Below are positions 13,366 to 54,539 of a DNA stretch of 64,000 nt, one piece after another; within the stretch, counting starts at the first letter, position 1; every line of letters begins with the position of its first letter. A program made the translations under genes and the position numbers. The stretch comes from an uncultured Campylobacterales bacterium. GTDB lineage: Bacteria > Campylobacterota > Campylobacteria > Campylobacterales > CAZCQG01. Below the pieces are notes generated by a model, which worked only from the letters and a program-made list of their open reading frames with translations, was not told the DNA's origin and made no database searches. The stretch is from assembly GCA_964500775.1 (NCBI GenBank), contig CAZCQG010000004.1, positions 19,383-83,382 on the forward strand, in the 5' to 3' direction.

Positions 13366-13442
13366 TGGCGGAGCCGACGAGGCTCGAACTCGCGACCTCC
13401 TGCGTGACAGGCAGGCATTCTAACCAACTGAACTACGGCTCC
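13366..13442 (-). tRNA. tRNA-Asp (GTC)
   Basis: Cloverleaf by eye: acceptor GGAGCCG/CGGCTCC, anticodon loop CTGTCAC, T-loop TTCGAGC, encoded CCA. Confidence 0.9.
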
Positions 13443-13449
13443 GCATCTA

Positions 13450-13525
13450 TGGTGGTCGTTGTAGGACTCGAACCTACGGCATCCACCTTGTAAGGGTGGC
13501 GCTCTACCAACTGAGCTAAACGACC
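13450..13525 (-). tRNA. tRNA-Val (TAC)
   Basis: Acceptor GGTCGTT/AACGACC, anticodon loop CTTACAA, T-loop TTCGAGT, encoded CCA. Confidence 0.9.
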
Positions 13526-13547
13526 GTGAAAATATTGTGAGAAAAAG

Positions 13548-13623
13548 TGGCGACCCCTAGGGGATTTGAACCCCTGTAGCCACCGTGAAAGGGTGGTATC
13601 CTTGGCCACTAGATGAAGGGGTC
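13548..13623 (-). tRNA. tRNA-Glu (TTC)
   Basis: Acceptor GACCCCT/AGGGGTC, anticodon loop CTTTCAC, T-loop TTCAAAT, encoded CCA. Confidence 0.9.
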
Positions 13624-13654
13624 TTACTTGTATAAGACATTCAAATTTAAAGGA

Positions 13655-13730
<76 letters not shown>

Positions 13731-39469: not shown

Positions 39470-39851
39470 GTTTCCCGATGAGGATTTGAAGCTATTACAA
39501 AACATCAATGTACTCTACGTAGAGGACGATGATCTTACAAGAGAAGCTTTTTCGAGTATTTTATCTCGATTTGTGTCCACGCTTTACACCGCCGAAAACG
39601 GTGAAGTCGGATTAAATAAATTTAAAGAGACGAATCCCGACATCGTCATCACCGACCTTGAGATGCCTAAGATGAACGGTATAGAGATGATTCATAAAAT
39701 CCGCGAAGTATCCCCCAAAAAAACCATCATAGTGATAACCGCTTTTAAAGACGAGGCGCATAAGGCCGAAGATGCCGATCTCGTATTGGTCAAGCCCGTA
39801 AAAAGAGACTTTCTACTTGATGCGCTGATTAACGAGGCGAAGAAACTCTAA
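39459..39851 (+). CDS. Stand-alone response-regulator receiver (CheY-like)
   Basis: 130 aa. The acidic pocket YVEDDD, phospho-acceptor ITDLEMPKMNG, then T (VITAF) and K (VKPV) are all present. TTG start with a GGAGG RBS, overlapping the upstream gene by 11 nt. Confidence 0.85.
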   Translation: MSSKFPDEDLKLLQNINVLYVEDDDLTREAFSSILSRFVSTLYTAENGEVGLNKFKETNPDIVITDLEMPKMNGIEMIHKIREVSPKKTIIVITAFKDEAHKAEDADLVLVKPVKRDFLLDALINEAKKL

Positions 39852-48868: not shown

Positions 48869-49981
48869 CTATTTTAGTACCTCGTAATATTTTTGGACAA
48901 AGATTCTATTCGCTTCTCCGTCAAACTTTCTCATTCCGATTCGCTCCATCGCAATCTCTACCGCATTGACCGCCCACAGCGCGTCGCTCACGTCGATAAG
49001 TCCCATGTGGTTGATGCGGAATATCTTCCCCTTGAGGTCATCTTGCCCGCCGGCTATATTTACATTGAGATCATTTTTTAGCGTCTTTCTTATTTTTTCG
49101 GCATTTTCGTCTATGACGGTAGTCATAGAATCCGCAGGGGTTTTGGGATAAATTTTTAGCCCTAATGCTTTGAGTGATTCCCTTGTCGCCTCGGCTCTAG
49201 CATGCGTTTGTCTGTAGAGGTTCTCTACGCCCATTGCAAAAAACTCTTCAAGTATCGCACCAAGACCTATGGTAAGCGTAGTCGCGGCCGTCCAAGCGGT
49301 AGTATTTTTTCGTTGATTCTTTAGCTCGGTGGCGAGGTTGAAATAAAATCCTCTACTTGATTCCTCTATCCTTTTTACCGCAAGTGCGCTCAACCCGATA
49401 AATGCTAACCCGGGAGGAAGCATAAAAGCTTTTTGGCTCCCTCCGATAAGAGCGTCGATATTAGTTACATCTATCTGCTCGACACCGAAAGCCGTAATTC
49501 CATCGGCAATAACCGCTATGTTTGGATTAATAGCTTTGACTGCCGCCGCGACCCTTTCTACCGGATGGCGCAATCCTCCGGCACTCTCGCTTATTTGGAT
49601 ACAGATAGTGTCTATTTCACTATTGTTTTTTACCGCATTTACTACATCTTCTACGGATACGGGAGTATCCCACTCGTATTTGAGTTCTGTGTTTTTTATG
49701 CCGTGTGCTTTTGCGATCTTGCCGAATCGTTCACCGAATTTTCCCGCATTGACGTTAAGCGATTCTTTTTTGCAGAGATTTATGAGCGCGGCTTCCATCG
49801 CTCCGCTACCGCTAGAGCAAAGCATGATGGCTTCTTCCATTCCGTAGAGCGCAATGAGCATTTCTCTAGTTTTTTGGAAAATCGCTTCAAATTCGGGGGT
49901 TCTGTGATGTATTGTCGGAGTAGCCATAGCCATTCTGACAAATTCGGGAACCGGTGTTGGTCCCGGAGTAAAGAGTTTCAT
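48869..49981 (-). CDS. Class V pyridoxal-phosphate aminotransferase (serine-pyruvate/alanine-glyoxylate/phosphoserine aminotransferase family)
   Basis: 370 aa. LFTPGPTPVP N-terminus, SGSGAMEAAL and the PLP-Lys region GGSQKAFMLPPG. Confidence 0.75.
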   Translation of the reverse strand: MKLFTPGPTPVPEFVRMAMATPTIHHRTPEFEAIFQKTREMLIALYGMEEAIMLCSSGSGAMEAALINLCKKESLNVNAGKFGERFGKIAKAHGIKNTELKYEWDTPVSVEDVVNAVKNNSEIDTICIQISESAGGLRHPVERVAAAVKAINPNIAVIADGITAFGVEQIDVTNIDALIGGSQKAFMLPPGLAFIGLSALAVKRIEESSRGFYFNLATELKNQRKNTTAWTAATTLTIGLGAILEEFFAMGVENLYRQTHARAEATRESLKALGLKIYPKTPADSMTTVIDENAEKIRKTLKNDLNVNIAGGQDDLKGKIFRINHMGLIDVSDALWAVNAVEIAMERIGMRKFDGEANRIFVQKYYEVLK

Positions 49982-49996
49982 TTTTTGACCTTGCTT

Positions 49997-50264
49997 AAGG
50001 GCACCTCTAAAAATTCTATACGGTCATAGCTTACAGAGCTTTTTCGTAGGCAAGGCGCACCGACACAGAACTACTTAGGTAATTCAAGAAGGTGCAACGA
50101 AGCTTGCGGAAAAGCTCTATAAGCCCAAAGGGAAGGGAAATTTAAGGCAATCTTTTGCGAGATATTTCCTAAACATAGCTACGGCTATGCCTGCAGAAAT
50201 CTCTCACCAAATCTTACCCCGACTTTCCCTTCTATGACTGCATAGAATTTTTAGAGGTGCCCTT
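49997..50264. repeat. 268-nt nested inverted-repeat element (33-bp closing stem enclosing two long imperfect hairpins); function unknown
   Basis: Hand pairing. 49997-50029 pairs with 50232-50264: 31 Watson-Crick pairs, 1 G-T and 1 A-C, with the outer 23 bp perfect. 50030-50051 pairs with 50102-50123: 18 WC, 3 G-T and 1 C-A. 50132-50168 pairs with 50196-50232: 27 WC of 37. An apical mini-hairpin CATAGC tacg GCTATG sits at 50174-50189. Confidence 0.85.
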
Positions 50265-50356
50265 TAATTAAAAATAGTGTCGTATTTTACTATGTAGGAG
50301 TATAAAAAGAGTTTATCGGTTATAATAACGAAAATTTTTATCATCTAGGAATATTT

Positions 50357-53920: not shown

Positions 53921-54178
53921 TTAAAAAACAGCGTCAAATCTATTATTACTTTTCGACTGTGTTAAAAAAGCTCTGCTTTTCTTTATATCTTGGAGTGATT
54001 TAAGCAGCCTTACGCGCTCTGCTTCGACTATCTCTTTGGCTTCCAATACCAAATCTGCAGCACTTTTCGCACTCTCTAGATTCTCAAATGTCGGCACTCT
54101 CGCAGTTAGTTTTCCGATAGCTTCGGCATCCCTTTGGAGAATTGCTATCTTAAGACTGTTTAGCCAATTCGTTTGCAT
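53921..54178 (-). CDS. Small helical hypothetical protein downstream of fliS (possible flagellar chaperone-type protein)
   Basis: 85-aa ORF overlapping the fliS 3' end by 29 nt. Supported by context only. Confidence 0.45.
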   Translation of the reverse strand: MQTNWLNSLKIAILQRDAEAIGKLTARVPTFENLESAKSAADLVLEAKEIVEAERVRLLKSLQDIKKSRAFLTQSKSNNRFDAVF

Positions 54179-54539
54179 GTATCTCCTTCCAAGCTTCTAA
54201 TAGCCCTTTCGTGACTTTTATAACGACATCTATCTTCTCTTTATTGTTCTCAATATTAGCCTGCGTGAGGGTTTTTATCTGATGACTGTAGAGACCCGTA
54301 AGATAGTGCGCTACCTGCCCCCCTTTTTCATAATCTAGAGAGTTAAGCAGTTCGGTAAAAATATCGGTTGTTTTATTTATATAATAGATTTTCTTTTCTA
54401 TATCATCATCATCTATCGCACGCTTTGCAAACGACGTAAAACGCAAGATTCCTTCATAGAGCATCTCAATAAGTTTTGCCGGCGATTCTACCGTAACGGA
54501 GTTTTGCTGGTATGACGTATAGGCGGCAAAATTTCTCAT
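54150..54539 (-). CDS. fliS: Flagellin-specific chaperone FliS
   Basis: 129 aa. Y..N.V.T.SP.KLI.MLYEG pattern, in fliD-fliS order. Confidence 0.88.
   Translation of the reverse strand: MRNFAAYTSYQQNSVTVESPAKLIEMLYEGILRFTSFAKRAIDDDDIEKKIYYINKTTDIFTELLNSLDYEKGGQVAHYLTGLYSHQIKTLTQANIENNKEKIDVVIKVTKGLLEAWKEIHANELAKQS

Follow-up and report, generated by a model that had tools for sequence, protein, structure and literature searches.

The 264-nt intergenic element studied here lies in a 64-kb stretch (the window) of contig CAZCQG010000004.1 from an uncultured Campylobacterales bacterium. [quoted passage not shown] The MITE family, which occurs in Sulfurimonas-like bacteria, is previously undescribed, and a full-text literature search turned up no report of any Sulfurimonas MITE. 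The element is ordinary in kind; what is unusual about it is a length that hardly varies, a closed multi-helix junction and the extent of divergence through which the base pairs have been preserved. The original prediction, made from the sequence of the window, had left open whether this DNA is a structured RNA, a palindrome or a MITE, and the outcome that it named for a MITE is the one that we found: there are dozens of copies at unrelated loci, and they are flanked by 4-bp target duplications.

Two large scans brought up the other members of the family. Exact matches to GGGCACCTCTAAAAATTCTA, searched in one genome per species, identified 17 stretches, six of them from Sulfurimonas: four contigs of the metagenome-assembled genome (MAG) STE_9, the MAG Kmv11 and the isolate S. 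indica NW8N. A metagenome scan for exact matches to the 20-nt end GGGCACCTCTAAAAAYTCTA added 117 stretches. At the Sulfurimonas loci, the end motif is present in inverted pairs that measure 266 nt from tip to tip or that delimit shorter forms. Pairing of the ends over all loci revealed that 20 elements measure exactly 266 nt and a few others 264-271 nt, and that there are forms with internal deletions that are 36, 54-55, 79-81, 98, 130-162 and 213 nt long. Since both scans needed the exact 20-nt end, these counts are lower bounds and are biased to intact copies. All 32 full-length copies are intergenic and adjoin unrelated sequence. In the MAG STE_9, copies are located on four contigs, and two of them are identical at 262/266 positions. 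A scan of viral contigs and a BLAST search of plasmids, each with the window copy and a consensus-like copy as queries, gave no matches.

The window copy is a member of this family. A family profile hidden Markov model (HMM) matches it over model positions 1-266 (nhmmer, E=2.3e-47). In a BLAST comparison of the entire element with the first loci, only the 22-nt ends had matched, and the resulting impression that the interiors of the copies are unrelated was overturned by the multiple alignment, which showed real, diverged homology: The interior of the window copy is 43-56% identical to those of the other members, and the motifs CAAGGCG, CAACG, GCCCnnnGGGAGGG, TAGCnnnnGCTA and TCCCTCTGA are common to the window copy and the family. 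The profile HMM also matches many copies that are cut off where a contig ends, as one would expect if the repeat breaks assemblies. Two Logan contigs, from independent assemblies of the genome from which the window derives (SRR13617032, SRR13617028), break at the element as well (L001:1-38, L138:1-20); the break is 38 nt inside the left end in the contig that stops there, and the other contig begins 20 nt inside the right end. These breaks are weak evidence, compatible with more copies in the source genome or with poor coverage of the hairpins.

Insertion of the elements has left a regular signature in the flanking DNA. We evaluated 40 non-redundant insertions with usable flanks and used re-paired left and right flanks as the control. 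An exact 4-bp direct repeat abuts GGGCACC...GGTGCCC at 22 of the 40 insertions (3.1±1.6 in the control), and the flanks match at three or more of the four positions at 33 of them. Repeats of 2, 3, 5, 6, 8 or 9 bp gave 0-5 matches; the signal peaks only at 4 bp, and models of 3-bp or 5-bp duplications were therefore rejected. The targets are A/T-rich with a consensus near TTAA. It had been argued that TTAA is palindromic and hence no proof of a duplication if taken alone; this concern is met by the family, as non-palindromic sequences make up 17 of the 22 exact repeats (e.g. TTTA, ATAA, TAAA, GTTT, ATCA and TTAC). Moreover, two copies of one MAG (L012 and L014) that share 262/266 positions occupy different sites and are flanked by different duplications, TAAA and TTAA, indicating recent movement.

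Several loci bear on the size range and the distribution of the element. The minimal 36-bp derivative consists of two abutting ends (GGGCACCTCTAAAAATTCTAATTTTTAGAGGTGCCC) and was observed three times (L016:3846-3881, L013:7904-7939, L005:6761-6796). The first of these is found in a Cellvibrionaceae MAG, outside the Campylobacterota, and has an exact TTAC/TTAC duplication. If real, the 36-bp form may be close to the smallest unit that can be mobilised. Four stretches labelled 'MAG: Rickettsia typhi' (L002, L004, L005 and L013) have the same end motif or minimal palindromes as the Sulfurimonas loci and a G+C content of 34-38%; their label looks doubtful. The contig L109 (positions 1-239) has the left flank of the 162-nt deletion form L115:2940-3101 and ends in a part of the element that matches differently, which may reflect size polymorphism of the element at one site. 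Single matches to the end motif in MAGs of Poribacteria, Fibrobacteraceae, Desulfobaccales, Planctomycetaceae and Gloeomargarita were treated as chance matches or remnants: Those that we inspected in these distant phyla are located in or beside ordinary open reading frames (ORFs) and have neither a partner arm nor a transposase.

The family shares its ends with full-length insertion sequences (IS). The same ends bound three IS of 1262 bp (L029), 1281 bp (L064) and 1274 bp (L036). The former two have one ORF each, for proteins of 346 and 340 aa that match the Pfam families DDE_Tnp_1 and DUF772 as well as the NCBIfam model transpos_IS5_4 ('IS5 family transposase') with 262-280 bits at a cutoff of 140. 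In L036 (2899-4172), the reading frame is disrupted, and only tblastn detects a match to the L064 protein, in two pieces. The nearest annotated relatives of the transposases belong to the IS5 family, i. e. the element of Aliarcobacter faecis pAFAEC (52% identity), followed by IS1168, IS1169 and IS1194, and the ends of the pAFAEC element (GGGTACCTCTAAAAAC / GTTTTTAGAGGTTCCC) resemble the terminal repeat of the window element. The similarity between the three IS and the MITE is limited to about 17-21 nt per tip, and the interiors are unrelated. We suggest that an IS5-group DDE transposase, supplied in trans by a full-length copy elsewhere, recognises the 20-21-bp terminal inverted repeats, and that staggered cleavage at insertion would duplicate 4 bp of an A/T-rich, TTAA-like target. 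The window copy would then have landed 17 nt upstream of the start codon of an aminotransferase gene, just upstream of the likely ribosome-binding site, and would since have gained one substitution in a target duplication.

Taken as a family, the elements are small, have terminal repeats and target duplications, contain no ORF and are present in multiple copies. The sole ORF that touches the window element is a spurious frame of 198 aa (49433-50029), which is mostly antisense within the aminotransferase gene and reaches 31 nt into the left end of the element; the substitutions within the family preserve pairs and are not codon-like in their pattern. Several points weigh against the assignment as a MITE. 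First, tblastn detected no IS5-type transposase in the 64-kb window, in agreement with the original prediction that none is adjacent. Second, the element is the single copy in the window, where neither a search allowing up to 3 mismatches nor a scan for inverted repeats nor the family profile HMM found another. Third, the duplication of the window copy is imperfect: TTAA had been read on both flanks, but the right flank is TTTA, so that the two agree at 3/4 positions, and TTAA alone is palindromic. Fourth, the empty sites for which a search had been proposed were not found among the family loci, all of which had been chosen because they carry the end sequence. Fifth, the requirement for an exact end has skewed the sample to intact-ended copies. 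Finally, a fold that is kept at 50% divergence is unexpected for a neutral MITE and suggests an additional constraint. With no filled/empty polymorphism among the loci, the case for mobility rests on the duplications together with the distribution over many loci.

The window element is a single unit of nested inverted repeats, as had been proposed for a unit of 268 nt; the element proper is shorter by the outermost AA/TT (2 bp), which derive from the flanks. Including these, the closing stem described earlier is real: Its two arms of 33 nt (49997-50029, 50232-50264) show 94% complementarity, with perfect pairing over the outer 23 nt, and the chance expectation for the 23-mer is 0.00 occurrences in 64 kb. 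Both internal hairpins were recovered as well, hairpin A with its GCACC/GGTGC helix and hairpin B with its CATAGC-tacg-GCTATG cap and arms (50132-50168 and 50196-50232) that are 73% complementary, and the five occurrences of CATAG/CTATG were confirmed by counting. In the table, these helices are named P1 (closing stem), P2 (hairpin A) and P3 (hairpin B); P2 carries the conserved unpaired motifs CAAGGCG and CAACG. Folding of both strands as RNA, as had been recommended, gave structures that are far more stable than dinucleotide shuffles: -122.8 kcal/mol as compared to -61.8 for the shuffles on the plus strand (z -13.9) and -134.9 kcal/mol on the minus strand, i. e. the strand of the aminotransferase gene (z -12.6). 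With DNA folding parameters, the z-score is -10.5.

The very stable fold on the gene strand and the 17 nt that separate the element from the ATG would fit a structured leader of the aminotransferase operon or a non-coding RNA gene that is specific for this locus and not mobile, and a leader of about 285 nt had indeed been considered. To this idea we give almost no credence: The homologues adjoin unrelated genes in both orientations, they are flanked by 4-bp duplications, and in the nearest relative, which is 68% identical, the aminotransferase-epimerase gene pair has an upstream gap of 106 nt that is free of the element. This relative is too far removed for its locus to serve as an empty site. 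Neither is there any match to a known RNA family, as already concluded before from a comparison by eye: Rfam searches of the whole window at the gathering score and of the locus at E<=10 returned only tRNAs and chance-level matches, none of them on the element, and four consensus-like members of the family had no match in Rfam 15 at E<=1.

The fold is conserved across the family by compensatory changes. In an alignment of 25 distinct members including the window copy (274 columns), RNAalifold predicts a consensus in which P1 closes the structure and encloses P2, a 2-bp helix at the junction and P3. Thus, the three helices of the proposed three-way junction stand, whereas the supposed 8-nt linker holds a CC-nnn-GG helix, and the consensus junction has four helices. 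Standard pairs fill 94.9% of the paired cells as compared to 82.9% in shuffled alignments (none of 500 shuffles reached the observed value) and 39-51% if the structure was slid. Both sides have changed in 56 of the 96 pairs (30.4 shuffled, 23-33 slid), and the covariation score is 0.361 (0.130 shuffled, 0.07-0.10 slid). Compensatory changes within the family affect the inner extension of P1 (columns 21-29), and in helix 2 (P2) 19 of the 22 pairs covary. The window copy itself forms 85 of the 96 consensus pairs, 80 of them as Watson-Crick pairs. The unpaired columns of the interior are as conserved (0.80) as the paired ones (0.81). In the mechanism that we propose, the interior, which is unrelated to that of the IS, would be a family-specific core of about 225 nt that forms a closed junction of P1, P2, the 2-bp helix and P3.

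These changes also bear on the origin of the palindromic architecture. Nested palindromes are typical of REP/REPIN repeats, which are spread by RAYT transposases (IS200/IS605-like, Y1), and they could also be left by an immobile DNA palindrome in decay, as the original prediction had considered; the weak two-fold pseudo-symmetry of the element would suit both. Nevertheless, either origin is extremely improbable. A palindrome that decays passively is contradicted by the compensatory changes, and the terminal inverted repeats are those of DDE elements of the IS5 family. REP/REPIN elements are not known to make regular target duplications, whereas the 4-bp duplications of the window family are regular. 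A Y1 transposase was not seen in the loci examined, in which no systematic search for one was made. The pseudo-symmetry can be seen in two ways: The family profile matches its own members on the reverse strand beyond the ends with up to about 86 bits, as compared to 277 bits in forward direction (e.g. L087:2416-2681), and the tips of P2 and P3 are alike, both being TAGC-nnnn-GCTA. The element may have originated when a hairpin unit of about 130 nt formed a head-to-head dimer.

Two tests addressed the strand on which the fold matters. Among all paired cells, 90.9% are Watson-Crick pairs; G-U pairs of the aligned strand make up 4.0%, and A-C combinations, equivalent to G-U if the opposite strand is read, 2.4%. 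G-U and A-C cells number 19 and 24 in P1, 15 and 11 in P3, and 62 and 22 in P2, where about 30 of the 62 G-U cells come from two adjacent columns (46-118, 47-117). The earlier observation that the wobble positions of the window element favour neither strand is thus borne out for the whole family. Where a start codon is no more than about 60 nt away from an end, the orientation relative to the gene is antisense 13 times and sense seven times, which is not a significant bias. An RNA that acts from one fixed strand is therefore unsupported, and the lack of a consistent bias in both tests indicates that the constraint acts on both strands or on the DNA. The element lies beside the starts of genes, whichever way it is oriented, and co-transcription is therefore likely. 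The reason for the fold that we favour is that a compact, self-contained transcript or DNA structure would be tolerated in both orientations, and that lineages with such a structure would keep proliferating. Template-switching self-correction of quasi-palindromes may contribute to the maintenance of the fold, and a need of the fold for mobilisation would be a third candidate.

It is conceivable that the MITE also carries a function, with the junction as a functional RNA or DNA module on which the aminotransferase gene has come to depend; such a module might be a portable structure or processing site in 5' untranslated regions (UTRs), an outward promoter in the ends or a fold needed for mobilisation. 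We regard this as rather improbable, even though several observations speak in its favour. The fold and several unpaired motifs have been kept at about 50% divergence, with equal conservation of unpaired and paired columns. About 20 element ends are located within 50 nt of a start codon (3-46 nt), as compared to about seven that adjoin the 3' end of a gene, which suggests a preference for, or retention in, promoter or 5'-UTR DNA; the start codon was taken as the first in the longest ORF, and these distances are therefore biased low. The window element separates the ribosome-binding site of the aminotransferase gene from the upstream DNA, and both ends have a TAGAAT that faces outward, at 14 nt from the tip. 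Elsewhere in bacteria, MITEs provide promoters, integration host factor (IHF) sites and RNase III sites (PMC10969869), and bcr1 has a cruciform-like RNA fold that is kept via compensatory changes (PMC3184786). On the other hand, the orientation to the neighbouring genes is unbiased, the G-U asymmetry between the strands is not consistent, and a promoter and terminator scan of the locus found neither an outward promoter nor a terminator; the single promoter-like site, an inward hybrid, is at chance level. An outward promoter in the TAGAAT-containing ends is speculative.

In a more specific form of this idea, the junction with its invariant unpaired motifs (CAAGGCG/CAACG, GCCCnnnGGGAGGG) would be a functional mobile module. 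It is based on the divergence of about 50% that the fold has survived, on the almost constant length of 264-271 nt and on the clustering of insertions 10-50 nt upstream of start codons, and we consider it unlikely. The module could be a DNA or RNA fold that an IS5-type transposase or a host factor needs for mobilisation, or it could be a structured RNA that is portable, functions in both orientations and rewires the expression of the genes whose 5' regions it invades.

A likely ribosome-binding site (AAGG, read as CCTT at 49989-49992 on the plus strand) lies in the 17 nt (49982-49998) between the aminotransferase ATG and the element. On this side, the aminotransferase gene is followed by genes for an NAD-dependent epimerase/dehydratase and for a protein of the UDP-glucose/GDP-mannose dehydrogenase family. 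With the element directly upstream of the likely ribosome-binding site, transcription of this operon probably passes through the element or starts from its end. If the element and one duplication are removed (...GACCTTGCTTAATTAAAAATAG...), a compact A/T-rich upstream region results, in which a TAAAAT box can be seen by eye about 40 nt from the ATG. The best homologues of the aminotransferase are 64-70% identical, the named ones being from Arcobacteraceae, Sulfurimonas, Sulfurovum and other Campylobacterota. The right neighbour of the element encodes a protein of 151 aa with no Pfam match.

Table. Position of the MITE, its parts and the adjacent aminotransferase gene in the window.
Feature	Position	Strand	Basis
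Class V aminotransferase gene (Pfam Aminotran_5)	48869-49981	-	ORF and Pfam
Left target-site duplication, TTAA	49995-49998	.	Sequence and 4-bp rule of the family
Whole MITE	49999-50262	+ (orientation of the family alignment)	Family profile HMM and alignment with 24 homologues
Left terminal inverted repeat, GGGCACCTCTAAAAATTCTAT; presumed transposase-binding end	49999-50019	+	Inverted match to 50242-50262 without mismatches
Inner extension of closing stem P1	50020-50028	+	Pairs with 50233-50241; consensus helix 1
Hairpin P2 (hairpin A)	50029-50124	+	Fold, family consensus, compensatory changes
P2 stems	50029-50051/50102-50124 and 50054-50061/50091-50098		
P2 tip	50068-50085		
Junction mini-helix CC-aaa-GG	50125-50131 (50125-50126 with 50130-50131)	+	CC/GG invariant in 25/25 members
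Hairpin P3 (hairpin B)	50132-50232	+	Fold; family helices 6-9
P3 stems	50132-50136/50229-50232, 50140-50154/50210-50225 and 50158-50167/50196-50206		
P3 tip CATAGC-tacg-GCTATG	50174-50189		
Right terminal inverted repeat	50242-50262	-	Perfect inverted match, 21 nt
Right target-site duplication, TTTA	50263-50266	.	3/4 positions equal to the left copy

Elsewhere in the window, an 18-nt inverted repeat (54071-54088 with 54326-54343) has arms that are 237 nt apart and a span that resembles that of the MITE; it falls inside the ORFs 53921-54178 and 54150-54539, does not match the family profile and is probably due to chance, as is a 24-nt overlapping palindrome at 39501-39536. Four tRNA genes are clustered within about 360 nt on the minus strand (13369-13730; Rfam bit scores of 57-78). 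The first 2,000 nt of the window have a G+C content of 0.335, as compared to about 0.42 for the whole window, and a positive GC skew unlike the remainder.

For annotation, these results identify as a transposon relic what would otherwise be a 'structured RNA candidate' without explanation. The family can be defined by its ends (GGGCACCTCTAAAAAYTCTA), its core of about 266 nt, its A/T-rich duplication of 4 bp and its partner of the IS5 group, and this definition should flag similar false RNA candidates in the genomes and MAGs of Sulfurimonas-like Campylobacterota, where the element breaks assemblies. Moreover, the family is a clean case, found in nature, of a MITE with a branched fold that is maintained by compensatory changes on both strands, and it provides a tractable system for the question why MITEs are structured, be it for transposition competence, for tolerance of co-transcription or as a result of palindrome self-correction. 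One of the copies (L010) resides in a cultured isolate, Sulfurimonas indica NW8N.

Among the known systems, the IS5 group (pAFAEC, IS1168, IS1169, IS1194) shares with the window family the terminal GGG(C/T)ACCTCTAAAAA(C/T) and the target duplication of 4 bp, and the full-length partners of the family encode DDE_Tnp_1/transpos_IS5_4 transposases. Elements of the IS5 group are known to make 4-bp duplications at YTAR-like sites; the targets of the window family (TTAA, TTTA, ATAA) are looser. In addition, the window element has 264 nt and no transposase, whereas the IS are about 1.27 kb long, and no interior similarity extends beyond the approximately 20 nt at each end. REP/REPIN repeats, which are mobilised by RAYT, are likewise intergenic nested palindromes in many copies, but the window family shares its terminal inverted repeats with DDE-type IS and makes 4-bp duplications. 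The Correia elements (CREE) of Neisseria, Chunjie of Geobacter and ERIC of Enterobacteria are similar to the window family in that they are small and non-coding, have terminal inverted repeats and target duplications, and are located in A/T-rich DNA between genes, often a short way upstream of a gene; deletion derivatives of varied size, like those of the window family, are found for Chunjie and QMITE2. This likeness is one of description and not of sequence, and Correia, Chunjie and ERIC differ from the window family in the parent IS family and in the length of the duplication. Correia elements duplicate TA. For Chunjie, the duplications are 9 bp long (PMC3184786). The folds differ as well, a closed multi-helix junction in the window family as opposed to one long hairpin. 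In general, bacterial MITEs are A/T-rich intergenic elements whose transcripts are predicted to fold very stably (PMC10969869; PMC3184786), and some of them, such as the Correia elements, supply promoters, IHF sites or RNase III sites (PMC10969869). Again by description, the nearest known parallel to a branched MITE under structural constraint is bcr1 of the Bacillus cereus group, a MITE-like repeat with short direct repeats and a branched, 'cruciform-like' fold that is kept by compensatory changes (PMC3184786). With about 155 bp and direct repeats of 5 bp, bcr1 differs from the window family in its dimensions, it belongs to the Firmicutes, and it is known to be transcribed; in both families, a branched fold has been maintained by compensatory changes.

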